Source: an uncultured delta proteobacterium | GTDB lineage: Bacteria > Desulfobacterota > Binatia > UBA9968 | Reading direction: 5' to 3' | Length of the DNA: 64,000 bases | NCBI GenBank assembly: GCA_963728565.1 | Contig: CAVSLC010000004.1 | Coordinates: forward strand, 64,001-128,000 | Shown: piece after piece, positions 26,911 to 44,259 of the stretch | Layout: each line of letters begins with the position of its first letter | How positions within the stretch are numbered: position 1 is the first letter of the stretch | Made by a program: the position numbers and the translations under genes | Notes under the pieces: model-generated | The model's database searches: none | Told to the model about the DNA's origin: nothing | Seen by the model: only the letters and a program-made list of their open reading frames with translations

Positions 26911-27094
26911 GTTTTTCTGAAACCGTCGGTGTTCATCAACTTCCTGGCCATAATCAAATCATCCTATAGTTGCCGGCGCCGGGCTACTGCAACCTCGGAG
27001 CGCTGCCTGAAGAAAGTTGCTCATGATCGCTGCCGTCGTCGCTTGCGCGAAAATGGCGAGCGCAACGATGATTATCAGTCTTTTCAGCAGGCTT

Positions 27095-29069: not shown

Positions 29070-30227
29070 GTGAAAAACGATGAGCTCTCATACAACTTAG
29101 GCGACACCGTCGATCGCCTGATCTCGGTTCAATATTTCATGTCAGGCGGCGGCTCGGCCCTGACCCGCAAGCCGGTAACCGGCGTGCTCTACGAAGCCGC
29201 CCGCGAAAAGGCCGGCGCGCCGCTCTGTCATCTTGCGGCCAAAACGCTTGCGGACAATGTTCAGCGCGGCGACACCGTGCTGATCACCACTGGCCTGATT
29301 GCGCCGCCATACATGATCGCCGAAGGCGACGGCCCGATTGCTGCCGCGACGCTTGCGCGGGCTATCGACGTCGGTCTTGACGCGACTCCGATCATCGTTT
29401 GCGAAGCAGTCGTGGTGAAAGCCATGGAGGCTCTTTGCCAGGCCGCCGGCCTAATGCCAAGCGCTCCCGAGCTGGCGGTCGGAACGCCGAGAAAAGTCAT
29501 CGTTCTGCCGTTTCCTCTCGACGACGACTTGGGGCGGCGCGAGGCGATTCGACTTTTGGATCAGTTCAAACCGAAAGCCGTCGTGGCTATAGAAAAGTTA
29601 TCCAAGAATGTTAAAGGCATTTATCACAATGGCTTCGGCATCGACGTGTCGTCGGTACAAGCAAAAGTGGATTACCTTTTTGACTTCGCGCGCGACCGCG
29701 GCATACCTACGATAGGCGTCGGTGACGGCGGCAACGAAATCGGCACTGCCTGTATCGCCGACGCCGTCCGCAAAGTCGTGCCCACCGGCGCCAAATGCGG
29801 CTGTCCGTGCGAGTCCGGCATCGCCGCCGCGACTCACGCCGACTATTGCGTGTTCGGTTCCAAGTCGAACTATGGCGGCTTCGCCATCGAGGCCTGCCTG
29901 GCCGCGGGACTGGAGCGGCCCGAAATCTTTCACAGCGAAGTTGTCGCTCGGCGCGTACATGAGGCGGGCGCAACCATGGGTCTGGTGGATCCGTTCACCG
30001 GACTCGCGTTCGGTTGGGACGACTTTCCGGTGCACAAAAACGTCAATGAACTTGTCACTAATCTGATTCGCTACATGCTAGCCGTGCGCGTGGTGCCGCG
30101 CTGGTATAAAGATTCGATCATGGGACCGAGCCAGAAGTGGATCCATGAACGCTCGTTCGCCGAAGACTTGGTCTCGCGTTGGGCGAAATCCATCATTGAC
30201 TCGGAAAAAGAATTCTTCCCGAAGTAG
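29070..30227 (+). CDS. D-glutamate cyclase-like (DUF4392) protein
   Basis: VLITTG, EGDGP..AA.LARA, AIEK, TIGVGDGGNEIG, CGCPC, SNYG. Confidence 0.82.
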   Translation: MKNDELSYNLGDTVDRLISVQYFMSGGGSALTRKPVTGVLYEAAREKAGAPLCHLAAKTLADNVQRGDTVLITTGLIAPPYMIAEGDGPIAAATLARAIDVGLDATPIIVCEAVVVKAMEALCQAAGLMPSAPELAVGTPRKVIVLPFPLDDDLGRREAIRLLDQFKPKAVVAIEKLSKNVKGIYHNGFGIDVSSVQAKVDYLFDFARDRGIPTIGVGDGGNEIGTACIADAVRKVVPTGAKCGCPCESGIAAATHADYCVFGSKSNYGGFAIEACLAAGLERPEIFHSEVVARRVHEAGATMGLVDPFTGLAFGWDDFPVHKNVNELVTNLIRYMLAVRVVPRWYKDSIMGPSQKWIHERSFAEDLVSRWAKSIIDSEKEFFPK

Positions 30228-30230
30228 GTT

Positions 30231-31667
30231 ATGACGAAGATCACCGCCGATATCGTTTTTAAGAACGGCTGGGTCGTCACGCCTTCCGGTGTCATCGAGG
30301 GCGGCATTGCCGTCGCCGACGGAAAGATCGCCGCGGTCGGTAGCGATGCGTTTTTGCCGGATGCAGAGCAGATCATCGACTTGGGCGGCAAACATCTTCT
30401 TCCGGGAGTGATCGATCCCGAGTGTCACCTCGGCGGCCATCGCGACCTGGCCGCCGATTTTAAAAGCGAGACACGGGCCGCCGCCGCTACCGGCGTGACG
30501 ACCTGGGGTTTGCAGCTCGTAAGCCTGGCGATCACCGGCGGCGCCGATAAAGTGAAGGGGCCCTCCGATATTCCGAATTTCACGAAATCGATGCCAACTT
30601 TCTACGAGGCGGCGAAAACCGCGGCCATCGATTTCTTTCTGACGCCGATCATCAGTACTGACGAGCAGGTCAAAGAAATCCCCTATCTGGCGAACGAACA
30701 CGGCATCAGCTCCTTCAAGCTCCACTTGCAGATGCAGGGACCGTGGAAGTCCTCATGGCCGGCTTACTTTTTTGACGATGGCAGCATTTACTCGGTCTTT
30801 CAGGAGGTCGCCAAGCTCGGCGCGCCAGCGATCGCGCTGCTTCACTGCGAGAACTGGGAGATCGCCCAGGTGCTGCAGAAGCAGCTGATGGACGCCGGGC
30901 GCAGCGACATGGGCGCCTGGGATGATCGCTCGCCGGCTTTCACCGAGGTCGGTCACGCCCGGACCTACCTTTATTATGCCCGGATCGCCGGCTGTCCAAT
31001 TTACGTCGTGCACTGTACAACGACCGACACCGTCGCGGAAATCGAGAGAGCCAAAGCAGAAGGCTTGACGGTCTATAGCGAAATCGGCACCCACTATCTC
31101 GTGCTGCACAAGGACGCGTGGAAGATCAACGTGCCGCTGCGCGATCGCTCTACACACGAAAGTCTATGGAAGGCGCTCGCGTCCGGCGCCATCGATTGCA
31201 TCGGCAGCGATCACGTCGCGCACACCAGAACCCGCGAGTCCATGCAGACGGGCAACGTCTTTACCACCGTCAGCGGTTTTCCTTCACGGGTGGAAGGGAT
31301 GCTGCCGATGATGCTCAGCGAGGGCGTAAATAAGGATCGAATCTCAATCGAGCGCCTGGCCCAAGTCGCCAGTGAAAATCCAGCGCGCATCTTCGGCCTT
31401 TATCCGAAGAAAGGCGCGATCCTGCCGGGCGCCGATGCGGATCTTGTGGTCGTCGATTTGAAGCGGCGTGCAAAGATCACGAAGGAACTTCTTCACACGG
31501 TGACACCCTGGTCCATCTACGAAGGTTGGGATGTCACCGGCTGGCCGGTTATGACTATCGTCCGAGGTAACATTGTGATGGAATGGCCTGAGGGCGCTCC
31601 TCGCGCCAGGGTCACCGAAACTTCCACGGGCCAGTATCTCAAAAGGCAACTCAGCCGCACAATCTGA
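30231..31667 (+). CDS. Cyclic amidohydrolase (dihydroorotase/allantoinase/hydantoinase family)
   Basis: LPGVIDPECH, SFK (carboxy-Lys position), LHCEN, VVH, IGSDH, NPARIFGLYPKKG.I.PGADADLV. Confidence 0.9.
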   Translation: MTKITADIVFKNGWVVTPSGVIEGGIAVADGKIAAVGSDAFLPDAEQIIDLGGKHLLPGVIDPECHLGGHRDLAADFKSETRAAAATGVTTWGLQLVSLAITGGADKVKGPSDIPNFTKSMPTFYEAAKTAAIDFFLTPIISTDEQVKEIPYLANEHGISSFKLHLQMQGPWKSSWPAYFFDDGSIYSVFQEVAKLGAPAIALLHCENWEIAQVLQKQLMDAGRSDMGAWDDRSPAFTEVGHARTYLYYARIAGCPIYVVHCTTTDTVAEIERAKAEGLTVYSEIGTHYLVLHKDAWKINVPLRDRSTHESLWKALASGAIDCIGSDHVAHTRTRESMQTGNVFTTVSGFPSRVEGMLPMMLSEGVNKDRISIERLAQVASENPARIFGLYPKKGAILPGADADLVVVDLKRRAKITKELLHTVTPWSIYEGWDVTGWPVMTIVRGNIVMEWPEGAPRARVTETSTGQYLKRQLSRTI

Positions 31668-32082: not shown

Positions 32083-33010
32083 ATGCCTCCAGTCATTTCC
32101 ATTTCGAACTTGACCAAGACCTACGCTTCCGGGTACCAGGCGCTGAAGGGTATCGACCTCGAGATCCGCAAGGGTGAAATCTTTGCTCTGTTGGGTCCCA
32201 ACGGCGCCGGCAAAACCACCGTGATCAGCATCATCTGCGGTATCGTGACCCCCACAGAGGGCATCGTTCTCGTGGACGGCCACGACATCGTGCGCGAATA
32301 CCGCGCGGCGCGGACAAAGATCGGCCTGGTGCCGCAGGAGCTGACCACCGACGCGTTCGAGTCGGTATGGGCGACCGTGAGCTTCAGCCGGGGTCTCTTC
32401 GGTCATGCGCCGAACCCGGCTTTTATTGAGCAGGTGCTGCGTGACTTATCTTTGTGGGAAAAGCGCGAAAACAAGATTATGACCTTGTCGGGCGGCATGA
32501 AACGCCGCGTGATGATCGCCAAGGCCCTGTCGCACGAGCCGGAGATTCTTTTCCTCGACGAGCCCACCGCGGGCGTAGACGTCGAGTTGCGCCGCGACAT
32601 GTGGGACGCTGGTGCGAAGCCTGCGGGAAAGCGGCGTCACCATCATCCTGACCACCCACTACATCGATGAGGCCGAGGAGATGGCCGACCGCATCGGGGT
32701 GATCAACAAAGGAGGACTGGTCGTGGTTGAAGACAAGGTCGAGCTGATGAAAAAACTCGGCAAGAAGCAGCTGACCCTGAGCCTCCTCGACCCTTTGCCA
32801 TCGCTTCCGCTGGAATTAAGCGAATGGCCGGTGGCGCTGAAGGACGGCGGGCGCGAGCTGGAATACACTTTCCACGGCAATGAAGAAAGCACTGGAATCC
32901 CGATTCTGCTAAAGCGGCTCGGCGATCTCGGCATCGGCTTCAAGGACCTGAACACGCGGCAGAGCTCGCTCGAGGACATCTTCGTCAGCCTGGTGAGCGA
33001 TCGCAAATGA
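32083..33010 (+). CDS. ABC-2 exporter ATP-binding protein (YadG-like), +1 frameshift near 32605
   Basis: [16 protein letters not shown] and LDEPT lie in ORF 32083; the H-loop ILTTHY lies in ORF 32612. An extra G in ATGTGGGACG joins the two. Confidence 0.9.
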
Positions 33011-33795: not shown

Positions 33796-33988
33796 CGGAA
33801 TTGAAACGCACTCGTCGCTCTCGAGCGATATTGTGCGACAAAAGCTTGCCGCATCGCTTAATCGAGGCAAATCACAATCTCCCCACCGCGGCAGATCACC
33901 GCACTCGAGTTGCCACCTTGTCACAAAAGAGCGTGAATGCGCACGCATTCGCCAAGCGATTCGCCCTAGCGCAGGATCCGGCCATTGA

Positions 33989-34689: not shown

Positions 34690-36561
34690 ATGATTTCCGC
34701 CGAACAAATTACCCAAGCCTTCGACAGCGCAACGCGGCAATTCCGCCAATCCGACGAGTATCAGGAGCTTGTCGCGGGACGTGCCAGCCCCGAGTCTGCC
34801 CGCGAGTTTTTGCGCAACGTTTTTCGCACCCACTTCCTCTCCTCGCATATCGTTGCCCTGTGCTTCGCATCATTGCCGTCGACGGCGGCCGAGATGTTGA
34901 GAGAAAATCTCCTGGAGGAAATGGGCCGCTCCGACGCCGGAAGGCCGCATTCGGCGCTGCTCCTGGAGCTGGCGCGCGGGGTCGGCTTTGACCAGAGCGA
35001 AATCGACGGGCTGATCGCCGATGCCCGCCGGCGCCTCGCGGTCTTCTGCGCCACTCATGTGCCGGCCTCAACCCTGCGCGAGCTTTGCCTGGCGGTGTTG
35101 CTCGAAACCATGAGCTTCGAGTTCATGCTGTCGCGCTGTTCGAGCGAGATCGCCGCTGCCCTGTCCAGCCGCTTCGGCTTTGCTAAACCGGCCCTGCACT
35201 GGTTTGCGCTCCATTCGGAGGTCGACGTGCGCCACGCCGAAGAGGGGGTGACCATAATCCAGGATTATCTCAGCTTTCACCAGGCACCCGACGATCTCTT
35301 CGAGCAAATCGCGAGTCTGACACTGGGCGATAACATTTTCGCTCGCCACTATTTTCCAGCCGGCTCGAAACAGCGGACCGGCACTCGATCGGTCCCGGCC
35401 AAGGCGCGGCGTATCGAAGCCCTGACCATTTACCGGCTGCGCATCCCGTTTCACCAAACCTTCCGCCATGCGCTGCACAGCCGCGAAGAGAGCGACGCGG
35501 TGATCGTTAAAGTCGTCGACAGCGACGGCCGCCGCGGTTTTGGCGAGAGCTTGCCTCGATCCTATGTCACCGGCGAGACAACCGAATCCATGATCGCGCG
35601 CATTCGCGAGCACCTGGCGCCTCGGGTGTTTTCGCAATCGTTGGCACCGGGCTGGGAAACTTTCGAGTATCTTCAATCCGTCGTGTCCGAATGGACGCGA
35701 CCCGAAGAGCGGCAAAGCAGCATTGCCGCCTGGAACGCCGCCTTTTGCGCCGTCGAGTTGGCATTGCTCGACTGGAGCCTGCGCGCCGATCACTGCGCCT
35801 TGGCCGACTTGCTGCCGCCGACGCGCTACGAAGTTGTCTACAGTGGCGTGATCTCGGCCGATGCACCCGACGACGCGGCCGCTCTCGCCAAGAGAATGGC
35901 CCGGATCGGCATACGCCAGATCAAAGTGAAGGTCGGCACCATTGATGACGCGGCGCGGCTCGAAGCGGTGCGTAAAGCCGTCGGTGTCGAGGTCGAATTG
36001 CGCGCCGACGCCAACGGCGCCTGGAGTGCCGACGAGGCGATCGAACAACTACAACGATTGGCGCGCTTCAAGTTGCAATCGATTGAACAGCCGGTGCGGG
36101 CCGATGATCTGGCAGGAATGAAACGAGCGCGTCAGGAGAGCGGCGTTGCAGTCATGGCCGATGAGTCGCTGGTCACGTTGGATCAGGCGCGCCTCTTGAT
36201 AGAACTCCGCGCTTGCGATTATTTTAACATCCGACTATCCAAGAACGGCGGCATCGGCGCCAGTTTAGCGATCGCCAGATTGGCGCAAGAAGCGGGGGTG
36301 AAAATTCAGGTGGGTGCGCAGGTCGGTGAGACCGGTATTTTGTCGGCCGCAGGGCGCACTTTGGCGGCGTATTTGCCGGCTCTGGCATTTGCCGAAGGCT
36401 CCTTCGGTACCTGGCTGCTCACCGAGGATGTCACATTCGAAAACGTCGCGTTTGGCTTGGGCGGGCGGGCGCCGCTTTTGCACACCCAAGGGCTCAGCGT
36501 CACGGTGAAGGAAGAGGTCCTGGAGCGTCTCGCCGCCGCGAAAATCGAGCTGCGCCGGTAA
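34690..36561 (+). CDS. Fusion of a heme-oxygenase-like diiron (PqqC/CADD-type HDO) domain and an enolase-superfamily (MLE/dipeptide epimerase-like) domain
   Basis: N-terminal domain: ENLLEEMG..PH, SFE, WFALHSEVDVRH. C-terminal domain: GFGESLPRSYVTGET, KVKVG, ADAN, IEQP, MADES, NIRLSKNGG, GAQVGET. One continuous 623-aa frame with GGAGG RBS. Confidence 0.85.
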   Translation: MISAEQITQAFDSATRQFRQSDEYQELVAGRASPESAREFLRNVFRTHFLSSHIVALCFASLPSTAAEMLRENLLEEMGRSDAGRPHSALLLELARGVGFDQSEIDGLIADARRRLAVFCATHVPASTLRELCLAVLLETMSFEFMLSRCSSEIAAALSSRFGFAKPALHWFALHSEVDVRHAEEGVTIIQDYLSFHQAPDDLFEQIASLTLGDNIFARHYFPAGSKQRTGTRSVPAKARRIEALTIYRLRIPFHQTFRHALHSREESDAVIVKVVDSDGRRGFGESLPRSYVTGETTESMIARIREHLAPRVFSQSLAPGWETFEYLQSVVSEWTRPEERQSSIAAWNAAFCAVELALLDWSLRADHCALADLLPPTRYEVVYSGVISADAPDDAAALAKRMARIGIRQIKVKVGTIDDAARLEAVRKAVGVEVELRADANGAWSADEAIEQLQRLARFKLQSIEQPVRADDLAGMKRARQESGVAVMADESLVTLDQARLLIELRACDYFNIRLSKNGGIGASLAIARLAQEAGVKIQVGAQVGETGILSAAGRTLAAYLPALAFAEGSFGTWLLTEDVTFENVAFGLGGRAPLLHTQGLSVTVKEEVLERLAAAKIELRR

Positions 36562-36567
36562 CCCTCT

Positions 36568-38255
36568 ATGCGACTGCTCGTCAAAGCCGCTATGTTCGTA
36601 ATCCGCCGCCAGTGGACACGCTGGCAAAAGCTCACATCCAAGCCCCAGGAAACTCAGGAGCGACTGCTTCTCGATATCATCGAGCGCAATCGCTCCACCC
36701 GCTTCGGCCGCGATCATGGCTTCAAATCGATCGGCTCTCTGCGCGATTATCGCAAGCAAGTGGCGATCGCCGATTACGAGCGTCTGCGTCCGTATGTCGA
36801 GCTCGTTAACAACGCGCGAGCGCGGCGCGCTGACCGCCGAGCCCATCGACATGTTCACGATGACCAGTGGCAGCTACGGGTGATCCCAAGCTGATCCCGG
36901 TAACGGCAAAAACACGAGAGAACCACCGGCAATTGACGCGGCTGTGGTATTACCGCGCGCTCGTAGACCATCCCGATCTCTTCAACGGCAAACTCGTTGG
37001 CGTCGTCAGCCCGGAAGTCGAAGGAGAAACAGCCGGCGGTATTCCATTCGGCGCCGCTTCGGGTTTGATTTACCGGAGCAGCCCGCGTTGGATACAAAAT
37101 GCTTACGCCGTGCCCTACGTGGTTTCCGAGATTAAAGACTTCGAGGCCAAATACTATCTGATCATGCGTCTTGCGCTGGAACAGGATATTTCGTTTTTCG
37201 CCACGCCCAATCCGAGTACGATTTTGAAGCTCGTCCAAAGCGCAAGTCAGAATAAGTACGACATCATCAAGGACATTCATGACGGCACTATCACATCGCG
37301 TTTCGACCTGCCGGCCCAAGTGCGTGCGTCGCTCGCGTCACGGTTGAGAAAAAACCTGCCGCGCGCGCGGCGACTGGAATCTTTAATCAAGCACGACGGA
37401 GCGCTCCGACCCAAAGAGTACTGGCCCCGGCTGCGACTTATCGGTTGCTGGAAGGGGGGCAGCGCCGGAGTGCGACTGAAGGAATTCGCCGGCTGGTTCG
37501 GCAAAACCACACCGGTACGCGATCTCGGTTACATGGCCAGTGAGGCGCAGATGACATTGCCGATATTCGACTCAGGGTCCGCTGGCATTCTCGCGATCGA
37601 TAAAAACTTTTACGAATTCATCCCCGAGTCCGAAATCAATGCGTCTGCGCCAACGATCTTGACATGTTCCGAGCTCGAGGAGGGAAATCTTTATTATATT
37701 ATTCTTACCACACCCGGCGGATTGTACCGCTACGACATCAACGACGTGATTCGCGTCGCTGGATTTTACAACCAAACGCCGCTCCTCGAATTCGTCCGTA
37801 AAGGCCGCGATGTCACCAGCATCACCGGCGAAAAGTTGCACGTCAACCAGTTAATCGGCGCCATGGCGCAGGCGCAAAGAGTTGCCGGCGTGGCGGTGCA
37901 ACATTTTCGCGCTTGCGCCCATGTGGAAAAGTCTCTTTACGTTCTCTCGGTGGAACTGGACGGCGCCATCCCAAGCCGCGAAAGCCTAGTGCAACTGCTG
38001 CATGAACTTGATGCCGGCTTGCGAGAACTCAATGTGGAATATGCGCAAAAACGCGACTCGCAGCGGCTCGGCTCGCCGATCCTTTGCGTGATGAAGCCCG
38101 GTTGGTTCGAGCGCAGAACCCAGATAATTCTCCAGCGCGGCGGGCGCGACACGCAATTTAAAGCGCAGCTTCTGTGCGCCACACCGGAAGACCCGGACGA
38201 GATAGAGTTCATCGTCCAAACCGCAGGCGCAGCGCCAGTAAAAAATCCAGATTGA
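36568..38255 (+). CDS. GH3 family acyl-acid-amido synthetase (two +1 frameshifts near 36815 and 36875)
   Basis: P.ETQERLL, T.FGRDHGF, DYERLRPY; reconstructed MFTMTSGSTGDPKLIP; GYMASE, FYEFIP, GLYRYDINDV, TGEKL, NVEY..KR. Confidence 0.88.
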
Positions 38256-38261
38256 CGCCGC

Positions 38262-38696
38262 ATGCACGGCCGCGCTCTGGCGATTCTGACTCTGCTTTTC
38301 GCGCTTCGCGTCTTGGGCCAAGCTCTGGTGGTATTTTTTTCGGTCGGCTGGCTGCCGCCCGCAGAGCAATGGTTCTCCGGTCTGATCCGCTATCCTATTC
38401 TTCTCGGCATCCAATTGGTTATGCTGGCCTTGATGTTCAAAATCGCAGTCGATATCTGGCGCGGTCGAAGCTTTTTCGCCAAGCCGAGACCTGGCTGTTC
38501 CCGATTCCTGGTCGCCTGCAGCATTTTGTACGCGGTCAGCATGGTGCTGCGCTACGCTTTAACGATGACGTACCGGCCCGAAATGCGCTGGTTCGGCGGC
38601 ACGATCCCGATTTTTTTCCACTTCGTCCTTGCCGCTTTCGTCTACACCTGGGGTAAATTTCATTCACAAAGGGACAAACTTGCAATCGCCCCATAA
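38262..38696 (+). CDS. Four-helix membrane protein of unknown function
   Basis: Four hydrophobic segments, with W.SGLI.YP and GG.IP..FH motifs; starts 6 bp after the GH3 stop. Confidence 0.75.
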   Translation: MHGRALAILTLLFALRVLGQALVVFFSVGWLPPAEQWFSGLIRYPILLGIQLVMLALMFKIAVDIWRGRSFFAKPRPGCSRFLVACSILYAVSMVLRYALTMTYRPEMRWFGGTIPIFFHFVLAAFVYTWGKFHSQRDKLAIAP

Positions 38697-38842: not shown

Positions 38843-39835
38843 ATGGCTGGCACTCCTATTTTCACCGGCGCACAAGCGATCACCCGCCTGCGCGAAACAG
38901 TGCACGGTAACGCCGCGAACTTTTACGCGATGTACTCGAGTGTCCTTGGCGGCATCGTCAACGATCCGGCACTCATGGTGCTGCCGCTCGATGATCACAT
39001 GGTGCACCGCGGTCACGGCGTCTTTGATACCGCTACACTGACGCACGGGATGCTTTATCAACTCGATCGACATTTGGATCGATTGATTCAATCGGCCCAG
39101 GGAGCGCGTATTCCGTTGCCGTTATGTCGCGAGGAACTGCGCCAGATCATTCTCGACACTGCTGCGGCAAGCCGCCAGCGCGATGGATCGGTTCGCTATT
39201 GGCTCTCCGCCGGCCCCGGCGGCTATGGCCTTGGTCCAGCAGAATGTGTTCGCAGTAGTTTTTACGTAATCGTGTTTAAACAGGAAGCTTATCCGGAAAG
39301 CTACTATCATGACGGAATCAAGCTCATAACCAGCAAAGTGCCGATCAAACCGCCGCTTTTTGCCCGCATCAAGTCGACCAATTATCTGCCTAACGTCCTG
39401 GTCCTCTTAGAAGCCAAAGACCAAGGCGCCGACAACGGAATTTTCATCGACGAGCGCGGCATGGTAGCGGAAAGCTCGAATATGAACGTAGCTTTCGTGA
39501 CGCGGGATCGGGTGTTCCGCCATCCGCCCTTTGAAGCGATTCTTTCGGGGATCACGATCCAGAGAGTTCTCGAGTTCGCTACCCTGCTCGTGCAGCAAGG
39601 GATACTGAATGCTATCGACCTCACCGCTATTTCGGTGCAGGAAGGACGCAAAGCGGCGGAAATGATGCTGATCGGCAGCTCGATTAGAGTCGCGCCCGTG
39701 GTCGTATGGGACGGGCAAATAATCGGCGACGGCAAACCCGGACCGATTGCCAAGAAGCTGCTGGAAAGGTGGAATGAAGACACTACCTCTGCGCAGGATC
39801 AGCTCATCATGGTGCCGTACGATCAAGTAAGTTAA
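38843..39835 (+). CDS. Class IV PLP enzyme, plant-type D-amino-acid transaminase / aminodeoxychorismate lyase-like
   Basis: AMYSSVLGGIVNDPALMVLPLDDHMVHRGHGVFDT, IKSTNYLPNV (PLP Lys), ESSNMN, ILSGIT, IGDGKPGP. Confidence 0.88.
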   Translation: MAGTPIFTGAQAITRLRETVHGNAANFYAMYSSVLGGIVNDPALMVLPLDDHMVHRGHGVFDTATLTHGMLYQLDRHLDRLIQSAQGARIPLPLCREELRQIILDTAAASRQRDGSVRYWLSAGPGGYGLGPAECVRSSFYVIVFKQEAYPESYYHDGIKLITSKVPIKPPLFARIKSTNYLPNVLVLLEAKDQGADNGIFIDERGMVAESSNMNVAFVTRDRVFRHPPFEAILSGITIQRVLEFATLLVQQGILNAIDLTAISVQEGRKAAEMMLIGSSIRVAPVVVWDGQIIGDGKPGPIAKKLLERWNEDTTSAQDQLIMVPYDQVS

Positions 39836-40113: not shown

Positions 40114-41556
40114 TTATTCCCTGGTCGTTAGCCTGGACTGAATTTCAACCTGCTGTTGCTGCAGCGGAAGATTGGCAATCTCGCGCGCTGATCCCGTCAG
40201 CTCCAGGATGTGCAAGCCGGTATTGGCCCGGTCAACAATGTAAATCAGACCGCGATCGTCGACCTCAACATTGTTCGTTTGAATCGCGATCTTACCAGCG
40301 CGCGGGTCGGTATTCGCTGTTGTGGCCGGAACAAAGTACGCGATCTCCTTCGGCTGGAACGGATTGCGGATGTCGACGGCGCGAACCCCTGCGTTGAAGT
40401 AAGCGACGAATAGGATCCGCCCATAATAGATCGGCGTGAAGCTCTCATTCGAGGAGTGCGCGCCGAAGCGCCCGCCACGGCGGCAGAAGACGCCGTCGGG
40501 ATCCGGCACGTGGTAGCTCGAAACCACCTGAGGCGTGGACTCGATAGTGACATCGGCGAAGAAGACCATCTGATGGGATTCTCCGTTGCACTCGTTGGCC
40601 GTCGATTCGTTGACGATCGCTAGGATGTCGCGGGTGCCGCCCACATTGAAGGGCCCGAGATGAGGGATTCGCACGCCGAGTATCGGGAATGTGGTGTGCG
40701 CGCCCACCAGCGGCGACGTATCGAACTGTGCGATGACGGGGAAAGTAAGGTTCTCCGGCGTCGGCTCCGGGGGGCCGGTCAAGAGCTTCGTGCGGTCGGC
40801 GATCTGAACGGTCCCGTTTGAGCTGGTGCCGTGACCGAAATAAACCCGGTGCCCCGCGCTGATCGCGCCGTGCAAATCCGTCGGAACGTCGCCCGTCGAA
40901 CCCGGTTCTTGACCTACCAGACCGTAGTCACGGATGTGAACCGGCGACCTCGGATTACTCAAATCAAACACCTGGGTCATGCGGTCGGTGCGCCATCCAG
41001 GCACGCCCGAGACCAGGTACGCAATGCCGGTATCACACTCCCACCAGTTTTTATGTGTTCCCTCGAGTCCGGATACCACCGTGGTCCGGAGCACTGGCGA
41101 GCTTGGATTTCTGACATCATAAATTTGATGGGCTTCATTGCCGTGCGCCCTTAGCAGGAACACTCCCTCCACATCCGCAGAGGTGACGCCGGGCAAATCC
41201 GTGCCATTGCACACCCGCACCATCTGCGCGCCGCCCGCCTCACCCGCTCCGCTGGGACCCGGGATGTGATGGAGATAAACGGGATTACGGGGATCGGTGA
41301 CGTCGACAATAGATACGCCGTTGTTCTCCACAGCGTTGGTCAGCGGATTAAAGGCCGAGCCGCCGTGGTGCCCAATATAGGCGATCCATCGGCTGCCCTG
41401 CTGATGGATTATCGGCTGATAGGCGGAACGGGCTTGAAGAGTGTTGTGGCCCAGGAGCGCCATATTATTGGAATCGGATGGATGCTGCGCCTCCACATGC
41501 CCACTGCTCAAGCTCACTGATATGATCATAATTAGTAGGAGTATCAACTTTTTCAT
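40114..41556 (-). CDS. Secreted LVIVD-repeat beta-propeller protein
   Basis: Signal peptide; repeated D[VLI][TRS][DN]P units (IVDVTDP, IYDVRNP, VFDLSNP, AVDIRNP); YFNAGVR; NNVEVDDRGLIY. Confidence 0.82.
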   Translation of the reverse strand: MKKLILLLIMIISVSLSSGHVEAQHPSDSNNMALLGHNTLQARSAYQPIIHQQGSRWIAYIGHHGGSAFNPLTNAVENNGVSIVDVTDPRNPVYLHHIPGPSGAGEAGGAQMVRVCNGTDLPGVTSADVEGVFLLRAHGNEAHQIYDVRNPSSPVLRTTVVSGLEGTHKNWWECDTGIAYLVSGVPGWRTDRMTQVFDLSNPRSPVHIRDYGLVGQEPGSTGDVPTDLHGAISAGHRVYFGHGTSSNGTVQIADRTKLLTGPPEPTPENLTFPVIAQFDTSPLVGAHTTFPILGVRIPHLGPFNVGGTRDILAIVNESTANECNGESHQMVFFADVTIESTPQVVSSYHVPDPDGVFCRRGGRFGAHSSNESFTPIYYGRILFVAYFNAGVRAVDIRNPFQPKEIAYFVPATTANTDPRAGKIAIQTNNVEVDDRGLIYIVDRANTGLHILELTGSAREIANLPLQQQQVEIQSRLTTRE

Positions 41557-42187: not shown

Positions 42188-42424
42188 ATGAAGCAGTGGA
42201 CCATCATAATTTCTTTCATCGGTTTTTTTCTGTCTCGGCCGACCGCGATTTTTTCAGCGGAAACAGCACTGAAGATTGTCAACGTGGCGGTTCCGGCGTT
42301 TTCCCTGTCGCAGGCGCCGCGGTTTACCGCGCCTGATGCCGGCGCATTCAAAGAATCTGGCATGGAAGTTCGCTATGTCGTCACTCCTAGGCGGAACTCT
42401 CTAAACAGGAGGACAAAAAGATGA
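42188..42424 (+). pseudogene. N-terminal fragment of a NitT/TauT-type substrate-binding protein
   Basis: Signal peptide plus VNVAVPAFSLSQAP...AGAFKESGMEV, then the frame ends after 78 aa. Confidence 0.55.
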
Positions 42425-44259
42425 TTTGCACAGCTCAGTTTAGGAAACAAACCGCGATTCTCTGGAGTATCATTGCGCTGTTGCTGATTCCCGCCTTTAG
42501 CGAGGCGCGCATCATCAGCGTCCAGTTGAATCCCCCCAAGATCGCGTTTGGCGGCTACTCGTGGCCGGGTGTCGGGCAGTATGAGAAGATTACAGGCGTA
42601 GCTTATGCTGAGGTTGATCCCGCCGATCGCCGGAACGCAATCATCGTCGATATCGGGCTTGCCGAACCGCAGGCCGCTCCCGGGCAGCCAGGCAAGACTG
42701 CCAATGGGAAAGTCGCGTACTCTTTAAATTTCTATATTCTTAAACCGATCAACTTGAACCAGGTCGATCGGAAACTGAACGGCTACGGCAAGATGATGTA
42801 TGAGCCGCCCAACCGGGGCGGCAAGACGTGGACCGCCTTGGGCCGTGTCACCGGCGGCGGTGACGACCCGGCTACCATTACGGACCCGACGATCCTCGCG
42901 AACTCATTCCTGATGCCGCGCGGCTACACGATCGTCTGGAGTGGGTGGGAGCCATTGGTGCCCCTTGCCAACTTGGCCAGCGACCTGGACGCGTCGGTTG
43001 CGTTGCCGATTGCCAAAAATCTAAACGGCTCAACGATCACAGGTCCAGCCTACGAATATATCGTAACCTCGGGCAACTCATTCCAGTTAAGTTATCCGGC
43101 GGCCGACACGGCGGACAAAACCACAGCGGTACTGACCCATCGCGTTCATCTTGACGACGTCCCGCAGGTAGTTCCCGCGGCAAATTGGAATTACAACTCG
43201 GACGGCACCGCGATTAACCTAACCGGAGGATTCATCGCCAACGACATTTATGAGTTCTCGTACACGGCCAAGGATCCGACCGTGGCCGGTCTTGGCTTTG
43301 CGGCCGTGCGCGATTGGGTTTCCTGGCTGCGCTACGAGGCGCAGGATGACACCGGCACGCCCAACCCGTTGGCCAACTACATCACCCGGATATATACCGA
43401 AATATCCTCGCAACCTGGACGTTTGTTCAACGACTTCCGCAAGCTCGGCTTCAACGAAGACGACCGTGGCAGAATCGGCAGAAAGGTATTCGACGGCCAC
43501 ATGCAATGGATCGCGGCGGGCAGCGGCATCGGCATGAACTACCGGTTCTCGCAGTCCGGCCGCACCGAGCGCAATCGCCAGAACCACTTATACGCTGAAA
43601 ACCTTTTCCCGTTCGCCAATGTGAGGACGACCGATCCGTTCATGGGCATTACCGCTAGCCGCTATGACGCATGTCAGCTGACGAACACGTGCGCGTTGGG
43701 AGTTGAGATCTATTCGGCCAACGAGTACTGGGTCAAAACGGCTTCACTACTGCACACCCAGCCGGACGGGAGTGCCGACCTTCCTGATTCCCCGTACACG
43801 CGAAATTATTTCATATCCAGCATGCAACATGGCACAGGCAACGCAACGAACAGAGGGGTGTGCCAGCAGTTCGGCAACCCGCTGAATTCCGCGCCGGTGC
43901 AGCGTGCGTTGTTTCTCGCTTTGGATGCATGGGCCAACAACGGCACACCGCCGCCCTCAAGTAGGGTGCCCCGCCTCGACAACGGGACACTCGTGCTGCC
44001 GGCAGACGCCGGATTCCCCACCGATATACCAGATCCGTTCGGGGAAACGCCCAACGGCAAAGTAACTTACACGGGTCTGAAGACCAGTCGTTATCTGTTT
44101 AATTATGGGCCTGGCTTTTACGACACCAATAACCCGGCCACCTTCGGTATTCCGAGCATCTTTCCGCCCGTGATCACCCCGCCGCTTATGCCTCTTATGA
44201 CTGACGCAGCGGCGCCGATCATCTCGGTGAACGGTCCGGTTTATCCCACCTTCGACTGA
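42421..44259 (+). CDS. Secreted alpha/beta-hydrolase-domain (Abhydrolase_10-like) protein, probably 3'-truncated
   Basis: Signal peptide, VGQYEKI.G, YEPPNRG, GYTIVWSGW, GLGFAAVRD, SQPGR, GFNED, NEYW, PPPSSRVP. Ends abruptly at YPTFD. Confidence 0.75.
   Translation: MICTAQFRKQTAILWSIIALLLIPAFSEARIISVQLNPPKIAFGGYSWPGVGQYEKITGVAYAEVDPADRRNAIIVDIGLAEPQAAPGQPGKTANGKVAYSLNFYILKPINLNQVDRKLNGYGKMMYEPPNRGGKTWTALGRVTGGGDDPATITDPTILANSFLMPRGYTIVWSGWEPLVPLANLASDLDASVALPIAKNLNGSTITGPAYEYIVTSGNSFQLSYPAADTADKTTAVLTHRVHLDDVPQVVPAANWNYNSDGTAINLTGGFIANDIYEFSYTAKDPTVAGLGFAAVRDWVSWLRYEAQDDTGTPNPLANYITRIYTEISSQPGRLFNDFRKLGFNEDDRGRIGRKVFDGHMQWIAAGSGIGMNYRFSQSGRTERNRQNHLYAENLFPFANVRTTDPFMGITASRYDACQLTNTCALGVEIYSANEYWVKTASLLHTQPDGSADLPDSPYTRNYFISSMQHGTGNATNRGVCQQFGNPLNSAPVQRALFLALDAWANNGTPPPSSRVPRLDNGTLVLPADAGFPTDIPDPFGETPNGKVTYTGLKTSRYLFNYGPGFYDTNNPATFGIPSIFPPVITPPLMPLMTDAAAPIISVNGPVYPTFD

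Follow-up and report, generated by a model that had tools for sequence, protein, structure and literature searches.

Organization of the locus

The subject of this analysis is a three-gene module in the genome of an uncultured delta proteobacterium of the Binatia. It lies in a stretch of 64,000 nucleotides, called here the window (positions 64,001 to 128,000 of contig CAVSLC010000004.1, assembly GCA_963728565.1; G000:C4:64001-128000 in our numbering). The genome comprises 4.5 Mb in 28 contigs and is rated 80.6% complete. All three genes lie on the + strand. The first (34690-36561) is an open reading frame (ORF) of 623 amino acids coding for a fusion of two enzymes. Its residues 1-235 (34690-35394) form a heme-oxygenase-like diiron oxidase (HDO) domain, recognized by Pfam family PF14518, by the AlphaFold model and by invariant residues. 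Residues 236-623 with the stop codon (35395-36561) form an enolase-superfamily domain of the MR/MLE type, identified through MR_MLE_N, MR_MLE_C and PDB sequence matches. The second gene (36568-38255) codes for a GH3 acyl-acid amido synthetase and runs through three frames. Its N, M and C Pfam domains are spread over two overlapping ORF pieces in different frames (36568-36894 and 36867-38255), which make up one gene. The third gene (38262-38696) encodes a 144-residue membrane protein with four predicted helices that is outside known families; the ORF call, a structural model and homologs at other loci support it. An ORF overlapping it in another frame (38174-38656) was rejected as spurious, as the frame beginning at 38262 is kept at 35-59% identity in distant loci.

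The gaps between fusion and GH3 genes (36562-36567) and between GH3 and membrane genes (38256-38261) are 6 bp each. The same 6-bp gap between fusion and GH3 genes is present in the genomes G005 (locus L019) and G028 (locus L022) and in one Dehalococcoidia locus (L072). The initial annotation of this DNA had described three co-directional genes with 6-bp gaps, and the ORF coordinates bear this out. Its calls of HDO, enolase and GH3 domains all proved right in the Pfam profile search.

The diiron oxidase domain

Residues 38-203 of the fusion match Haem_oxygenas_2 (PF14518) with 60.6 bits against a cut-off of 28.9. The AlphaFold model of the domain has a predicted local distance difference test score (pLDDT) of 91.9. 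Its best PDB folds are CADD (1rcw; E 3.7e-6, template modelling (TM) score 0.68-0.76), HrmI, UndA, FlcD, RohS and BesC, at a Foldseek probability of 1.00. TM scores of the best fold matches range over 0.66-0.76, with sequence identity of 14-18% to any of them, and the best matches by sequence are CADD (E 1.8e-4) and BesC (E 0.016). Residues E76/E77, H87, E139/E144, H175, D179 and H182 are invariant in 14 fusion proteins. The Glu/His/Asp set is also present in most of 39 family members and is missing from a few divergent standalone forms. The spacing of the Glu and His residues is as expected for the predicted diiron site; the assignment of residues to ligands follows HDO motifs, not coordinates. 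The modelled helical fold and the putative set of three His and three carboxylate ligands both place the domain in the HDO superfamily. It does not belong to the CADD-type p-aminobenzoate synthases (TIGR04305), where it scores 25 bits against a cut-off of 200 at 16-18% structural identity.

A search with the HDO domain found 108 representatives at E<=1e-3 among 1.84 billion proteins, and by sequence the domain forms a small family of its own. Its members occur as standalone proteins of about 225-240 residues, as the 619-residue fusion, as HDO-GH3 and as enoyl-CoA-hydratase-HDO. The HDO-GH3 form, protein P0198 of 510 residues, matches HDO over residues 16-200 and the GH3 Pfam domains over 166-469, and is thus a Rosetta-stone fusion. 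The metagenomic protein P0190 is a 572-residue enoyl-CoA-hydratase-HDO fusion. Searches for related loci with the standalone HDOs P0144 or P0152 gave no match in the genome contigs. The domain shares with CADD, HrmI, UndA, FlcD, RohS and BesC the helical fold, PF14518 and the diiron-type residue spacing; it differs from them in its identity of 14-18% and in being fused or adjacent to an enolase-type enzyme and GH3. HDOs are a young enzyme family, whose characterised clades have tended to reveal distinct chemistry.

The enolase-type domain

The second part of the fusion matches MR_MLE_N with 28.5 bits (cut-off 22) and MR_MLE_C with 163.8 bits (cut-off 29.4). Its best PDB matches by sequence are the L-Ala-D/L-Glu epimerase 1jpm (E 3.8e-39) and the dipeptide epimerase 3jva (E 1.2e-38). 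The N-succinyl-amino-acid racemase-type protein 2p88, which we take to be an N-succinyl-Arg/Lys racemase, is matched at E 1.4e-35. In the 14 fusion proteins K412, K414, D440, E466 and D491 are invariant and K518 is nearly so, and in the alignment with 1jpm K412/K414, D440, E466, D491 and K518 coincide with its KxK, D, E, D and K positions. The domain can therefore be placed, by its predicted features, in the MLE subgroup, which is defined by a capping and a barrel domain, D/E/D metal ligands and the KxK and K lysines.

It scores below the NCBIfam cut-offs for muconate cycloisomerase (133.5 vs 335), DgcA (114.1 vs 400), OSBS (109.2 vs 200.65) and L-Ala-D/L-Glu epimerase (99.6 vs 500), and is, as judged from these comparisons, a new subfamily of the MLE subgroup. 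Dipeptide epimerases of the AEE type carry an acidic DxD motif after the last barrel strand, which binds the free N-terminal amine of the substrate. The alignments to 1jpm and 3jva end near chain residue 308-312, before the region of this motif, whereas that to 2p88 continues through the C-terminus. The domain is thus like the MLE-subgroup epimerases (1jpm/1tkk, 3jva, 2p88) in its two-domain fold and in its aligned KxK/K lysines and D/E/D ligands, and the substrates of these relatives are N-acylated amino acids with a free carboxylate. It is unlike them in matching at E-values of no better than about 1e-39 to 1e-36, in falling under all curated NCBIfam cut-offs and in being joined to an oxygenase.

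The GH3 gene and its broken frame

GH3 enzymes activate a carboxylic acid by adenylation and transfer it to an amino acid. The window gene has N, middle and C domains, all above the Pfam cut-off (23.6 bits each), which makes it a member of the GH3 acyl-acid amido synthetases. The N domain is split over the two pieces (59.6 bits for model positions 5-66 and 121.2 bits for 89-301), and GH3_M and GH3_C score 80.3 and 57.5 bits. According to a genome search, it is the sole GH3 gene of this genome.

The initial annotation had noted indels in this gene, and comparison with G005, a genome of the same genus with 93.7% DNA identity, finds them in the deposited sequence: two 1-nt insertions, at about 36815 and 36875, through which the frame runs in the order 1, 2, 3. 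The frame-2 stretch between the breaks is 20 codons long and free of stops. The conserved nucleotide-binding motif TSGS..GDPK spans the second break, lying in the frame-2 stretch and the start of frame 3. It is intact in the G005 ortholog, an unbroken gene of 561 codons (L019:10164-11849). In all seven relatives that carry the fusion the corresponding GH3 parts are in frame, 300 or 303 nt apart, against 302 nt in the window.

Has this gene lost its function? When the window is compared with G005, the ratio of nonsynonymous to synonymous substitution rates (dN/dS) is 0.17 each for the fusion gene, the large GH3 piece and the membrane gene; in the comparison with G006 it is 0.13, 0.16 and 0.25, respectively. 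No sequencing run contained more than 0.46 of the words of the stretch. We also compared contigs from three DNA sequencing runs of other samples. One 98%-alike contig from another sample (run X2) lacks the base at 36873, i.e., the second insertion. Contigs of an RNA library (X18), also from another sample, match parts of the fusion gene at 90-99% and give no evidence on transcription in this strain.

Other genes of the same genome are broken in a similar way. The gene of an ABC transporter ATPase (32083-33010, +) is split by a 1-nt insertion at about 32606, leaving an open frame of 198 amino acids in the window vs 311 in G005, where the gene is intact (a 308-residue ORF); this looks like another assembly indel. 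Another open frame, of 525 amino acids in G005, is cut to 325 in the window by three 1-nt indels at 27017-27063 (net +1). A 1-nt difference at 33812-33815 was rejected as a coding frameshift: it falls just after the ABC-2 membrane gene, where the open frame of the window is the longer one. G005, another long-contig assembly, has its breaks in genes other than those of the window, which points to indel errors in such assemblies. In several of the long-contig Binatia metagenome-assembled genomes at L035, L036 and L040-L043 the fusion, GH3 or aas gene is found as two to four ORF pieces, which suggests that frame-breaking indels are frequent in assemblies of this kind. Given the in-frame relatives, the similar breaks in other genes of the genome and dN/dS values equal to those of the neighbours, assembly error is much the likelier, if not proven, origin of both GH3 insertions, and the gene is therefore probably alive.

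The four-helix membrane protein

The 144-residue membrane protein has no Pfam or NCBIfam match. Its model (pLDDT 83.7) consists of four long helices and one short helix, and R, Q, W, Y and H positions are conserved among its homologs. In structure searches the best Foldseek match had an E-value of 2.6, and VIA-align returned generic helical bundles with Z<=7.2, below what is meaningful for such folds. In a protein atlas it falls into unnamed clusters only. Export or anchoring had been proposed as its role; as there is no informative structural match for the model, this stays a guess.

Distribution in Binatia

Almost all close homologs of the 623-residue fusion come from metagenome-assembled genomes labelled 'Candidatus Binatia' or 'delta proteobacterium'. 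Among 60 related genomes a full-length match is present in seven, five of them in the genus of the window, with G014 and G028 besides; one more genome has a partial match at a contig end. This tally includes the unpublished G012 and G018, which have paralog-level matches only. At E<=1e-100 the fusion was not found in any of 300 further genomes taken from across the phylum, so the distribution is patchy.

Where the fusion is present, GH3 follows it. The GH3 gene lies directly downstream in all seven relatives. It follows the fusion in 20 of 23 Binatia loci, that is, in 20 of the 20 that can be assessed, the other three contigs ending within the fusion gene or at most 331 nt past it. The membrane gene comes next in 17 of these 20 loci (17 of the 19 assessable, as L026 ends inside GH3); in L021 and L028 GH3 has no membrane gene after it.

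Distribution beyond Binatia

In Dehalococcoidia a 619-residue fusion is followed by GH3 in 10 of 10 loci. These fusions are 44-46% and the GH3 proteins 48-50% identical to those of the window clade. A homolog of the four-helix protein was not detected in these loci.

A metagenome scan seeded with P0198 gave 30 GH3 loci. In 21 of them GH3 adjoins an enolase gene whose product is 35-52% identical to the window domain, the enolase gene lying upstream in 20 and, in L104, downstream of a GH3 fragment. In nine loci no enolase gene adjoins GH3: three start inside GH3, and six carry GH3 proteins at 32-42% identity, five of which are the most distant of the set. A 928-residue ORF in L078 was considered as an enolase-GH3 fusion and rejected, because only its GH3 domains match and the enolase lies in another frame. 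Two of the more distant GH3 genes without an enolase partner (L099, L103) are followed by a HAD hydrolase gene and, in L103, then by a nitroreductase-thioesterase fusion, which looks like a different GH3 cassette.

An unfused order of HDO, enolase and GH3 genes occurs in 6 of the 30 metagenome loci, among them L091 and its apparently identical counterpart L092, with L089 closely similar to both. In five others (L083, L084, L085, L088, L100) a gene for a membrane diiron enzyme of the FA_hydroxylase family (PF04116) takes the place of the HDO gene before the enolase gene. These five loci are 80-100% alike and represent one lineage. In L079 the HDO gene, and in L083 the FA_hydroxylase gene, is preceded by a gene for a homolog of the four-helix protein. 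The FA_hydroxylase family includes OlsE, which reportedly acts as a hydroxylase. Enzymes of the OlsE type and other hydroxylases of this family are thus comparable to the HDO domain in that, in one lineage, such a gene occupies the slot upstream of enolase and GH3; they are unlike it in having an unrelated fold and in being membrane-bound, and the window has no such gene. The exchange suggests that the two kinds of enzyme perform equivalent oxidative steps.

With FastTree, one tree was built for the enolase parts and one for the GH3 proteins, from 26 of the 63 module-bearing or P0198-seeded loci (23 Binatia, 10 Dehalococcoidia, 30 metagenome) together with six partnerless GH3 proteins. Midpoint-rooted and read without support values, the two trees have matching groups, and the Binatia and Dehalococcoidia fusions are sisters in both. 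GH3 proteins without an enolase partner fall outside, except that of L093, which pairs with L097. Enolase and GH3 thus appear to have been inherited together. Since the arrangement recurs across phyla, it is far more than a chance one. Non-recurrence in other genomes had been named at the outset as a result that would speak against an operon; fusion and GH3 genes occur together again in Binatia, in Dehalococcoidia and in metagenomes.

Flanking and neighbouring genes

In most Binatia loci the module lies between an aas/lplT fusion gene and bioB. The former encodes a protein of 1130 amino acids (MFS-acyltransferase-AMP-ligase), an acyl-[ACP]-phospholipid O-acyltransferase with 1391 bits vs a cut-off of 1221; bioB matches with 401 bits vs 225. 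In the genome of the window aas and bioB are adjacent on contig 28 (C28:127794-132324; loci L054, L055, L057, L062), and the module is elsewhere. The aas/lplT gene there, which immediately precedes bioB, has internal stops and is in three pieces; bioB itself is intact. As the two genes stand together here without the module, the three genes are a mobile unit and the link with aas is weak. Both aas and bioB, being curated housekeeping equivalogs that stay together without the module, were rejected as cassette members.

Lipid-related genes are found near the module in different lineages: aas/lplT, LPG_synthase_TM, PAP2, and an alpha/beta-hydrolase with a patatin-like phospholipase. Another set of neighbours is related to D-amino acids or peptides, and includes the class IV aminotransferase gene and the D-glutamate-cyclase-like gene described below. 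An M19 dipeptidase gene lies upstream of the FA_hydroxylase gene in L084, L085 and L100, and its last codons are seen at the start of L088; an Amidase_2-LysM gene is upstream in L091, and pgeF is close by in most Binatia loci. An N-acyl-D-amino acid would agree with both sets and is proven by neither.

In the window the membrane gene is followed by a gene for a class IV aminotransferase of the branched-chain / D-amino-acid type (38843-39835, +; Aminotran_4 158 bits, below every NCBIfam cut-off). It stands beside the module in 4 of 23 Binatia loci, all from the genus of the window, and its membership in the cassette is doubtful. Upstream, at 29070-31667 (+), a D-glutamate-cyclase-like gene (GLUCM-like_C) lies 3 bp from a gene for a hydantoinase/dihydropyrimidinase-like amidohydrolase (264 bits vs a cut-off of 393), and an ABC-2 exporter gene comes next. 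This pair is conserved in the window's genus only and may belong to a cyclic-amide or D-amino-acid pathway. Downstream are genes for an LVIVD-repeat protein (40114-41556, -) and an Abhydrolase_10-domain protein (42421-44259, +), neither conserved with the module. In the unfused loci L089 (3827-4723) and L091 (9117-10028) a gene of the leucine-carboxyl-methyltransferase family comes after GH3 and is followed by PutA; its product may methylate the free carboxylate of the conjugate.

Relation to described systems

Bacteria have many GH3 enzymes, of which only one is characterised according to Rivera-Najera et al. (2025, PMC12493201). This is OlsH, a GH3-like enzyme of Singulisphaera acidiphila, which makes N-acyl ornithine from a free fatty acid and ATP and so starts an ornithine-lipid pathway. 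The module resembles the OlsH/OlsI pathway in having tailoring or acylating genes beside a bacterial GH3 gene. The partner differs, being an HDO-enolase fusion here and the alpha/beta-hydrolase OlsI in the case of OlsH. No alpha/beta-hydrolase gene lies between 34690 and 39835; the metagenome locus L097 has one upstream.

The absence of any described pathway with this combination of enzymes, asserted in the initial annotation, agrees with our full-text literature searches. These had a reach that ended short of supplements and of about 1.7 million PMC articles, and within it no paper was found for HDO with enolase, for HDO with GH3 or for HDO sequence networks with fusions. A full-text search for 'enolase superfamily' with GH3 found no paper combining them, and one for 'Binatia' with 'biosynthetic gene cluster' gave unrelated papers only. 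A text search of a 2026 review (PMC12971839) found GH3 solely in connection with OlsH, and no occurrence there of racemase, enolase or epimerase.

Proposed function and alternatives

On balance, and with moderate confidence, we read the module as a conserved cassette that synthesizes and tailors an N-acyl amino acid, probably of a lipid-like kind. GH3 would take a free carboxylic acid, which is most likely a fatty acid, adenylate it and join it to an amino acid, as OlsH does. The enolase-type domain would then take the alpha-proton from the amino-acid moiety of the conjugate, the outcome being L-to-D epimerisation or, after hydroxylation, beta-elimination. The fused diiron domain would carry out an O2-dependent oxidation of the conjugate (hydroxylation, desaturation or oxidative decarboxylation), with the four-helix membrane protein as a possible accessory. 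That the enolase-type domain acts on the GH3 product at its alpha-carbon is suggested by the tight coupling of enolase and GH3 and by N-acyl amino acids being the substrate class of its relatives. The occupation of the oxidase slot by a soluble HDO in most lineages and by a membrane FA_hydroxylase in one suggests that a hydrophobic conjugate is hydroxylated or desaturated in an O2-dependent reaction. The initial annotation had an acid oxidised or isomerised first and conjugated afterwards. We keep the GH3 conjugation scheme and reverse the order: among proteins of solved structure, those closest to the enolase part use dipeptides or amino acids that are already N-acylated, so ligation before tailoring is likelier. 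A more specific version, which we put forward only tentatively and consider rather improbable, is that the HDO-enolase fusion works as a two-step machine on the head group of the GH3-made N-acyl amino acid. Here hydroxylation (or oxidative decarboxylation) would fall to the diiron domain, and the enolase domain, by taking the alpha-proton, would eliminate water (or set the D-configuration), giving an N-acyl dehydro- or D-amino acid.

Several points weigh against the main reading. Gene order, domains, catalytic residues, synteny across phyla and purifying selection are observed; from these we infer every reaction and every substrate and product of all three enzymes. The closest fold of the HDO domain is that of CADD, a p-aminobenzoate synthase and no lipid enzyme. 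With 117 bits vs a cut-off of 620 in the OlsH model (NF052613), the intact GH3 ortholog is not an OlsH ortholog, and the window pieces reach 42.3 and 61.7 bits. The aas and bioB flanks are housekeeping genes that are adjacent without the module too, so that this neighbourhood may be a mere insertion site, and the Dehalococcoidia loci are flanked by the unrelated housekeeping genes ZnuA, PNPase and dapB. Other neighbours (M19 dipeptidase, Amidase_2-LysM, pgeF, the class IV aminotransferase and the D-glutamate-cyclase-like gene) point to D-amino-acid or peptide metabolism. Finally, the sequencing runs came from other samples than the source, with position 36815 under none of their contigs. Together with the two non-compensating 1-nt insertions in the deposited sequence, this speaks for a GH3 gene that is truly frameshifted in this strain, in a cassette that is dead or decaying. 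We think this unlikely: GH3 is in frame in all the fusion-bearing relatives, the stop-free frame-2 stretch encodes the conserved TSGS motif, dN/dS of GH3 is not above that of its neighbours, and unrelated genes (the ABC ATPase gene at 32606, the gene at 27017-27063, aas in three pieces) are broken alike, as are other genes of G005, which points to indel errors in such assemblies.

If the acid were not a lipid, the same scheme would lead from an aromatic or other short carboxylic acid and an amino acid to a small soluble conjugate (a signal, or a siderophore-like or antibiotic-like natural product) that is epimerised and oxidised. The best PDB matches of the GH3 ortholog are plant enzymes acting on jasmonate, auxin and benzoates (about E 1e-30), known HDOs mostly use small acids or free amino acids, GH3 is followed in L089 and L091 by the carboxyl-methyltransferase-family gene, and the Dehalococcoidia loci have no lipid neighbours. 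This possibility deserves attention but we do not favour it: lipid-related neighbours recur in several lineages, an FA_hydroxylase-family enzyme replaces HDO in one of them, and a membrane protein accompanies the module in Binatia and in two metagenome loci. Also, the sole characterised bacterial GH3 found, OlsH, uses fatty acids (PMC12493201). The peptide-related neighbours, both those upstream of the module in L084, L085, L100, L088 and L091 and pgeF, the aminotransferase and the cyclase-like gene, would suit a cassette that acts on peptides containing D-amino acids, e.g., in recycling or editing of cell-wall peptides, with the enolase part as a true dipeptide epimerase, which its top PDB matches are, and GH3 ligating an amino-acid-like acid. 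This is improbable in our judgement. The alignments to dipeptide epimerases stop short while 2p88 aligns in full length, the epimerase equivalogs of NCBIfam are far below cut-off (e.g., 99.6 vs 500), recycling needs neither an ATP-spending ligase nor an oxygenase, and such neighbours are each confined to one lineage. Even less can be said for a folate-related route, in which a CADD-like HDO makes p-aminobenzoate and GH3 joins it to glutamate, as plant GH3.12 can with 4-substituted benzoates. CADD is indeed the best match of the HDO domain both in sequence and in fold, and GH3.12, a '4-substituted benzoates-glutamate ligase', is among the PDB matches of GH3. However, the identity to CADD and the NCBIfam CADD score are low, as given above, the enolase domain would be left without a role, and the HDO slot is filled by a membrane FA_hydroxylase-family enzyme in one lineage; we regard this route as very improbable.

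Significance

The module is a real, conserved and undescribed cassette of uncultured soil bacteria, and as a tailored N-acyl amino acid pathway it would combine GH3-dependent synthesis with an oxygenase-enolase tailoring enzyme that has no precedent. It is a defined three-enzyme system: in at least two phyla, fusion, gene order and the agreement of the trees tie a small and distinct HDO clade firmly to an enolase-type enzyme and GH3. If the fusion does work in two steps on the GH3 product, this would be a new reaction type for both enzyme superfamilies and would give an undescribed class of membrane lipids or signals, made by uncultured bacteria that are widespread in soil and the subsurface. 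Should the cassette yield a tailored N-acyl amino acid, the abundant uncultured soil Binatia and the Dehalococcoidia would have a new route, and probably a new structure, in the amino-lipid and signal chemistry of bacteria.

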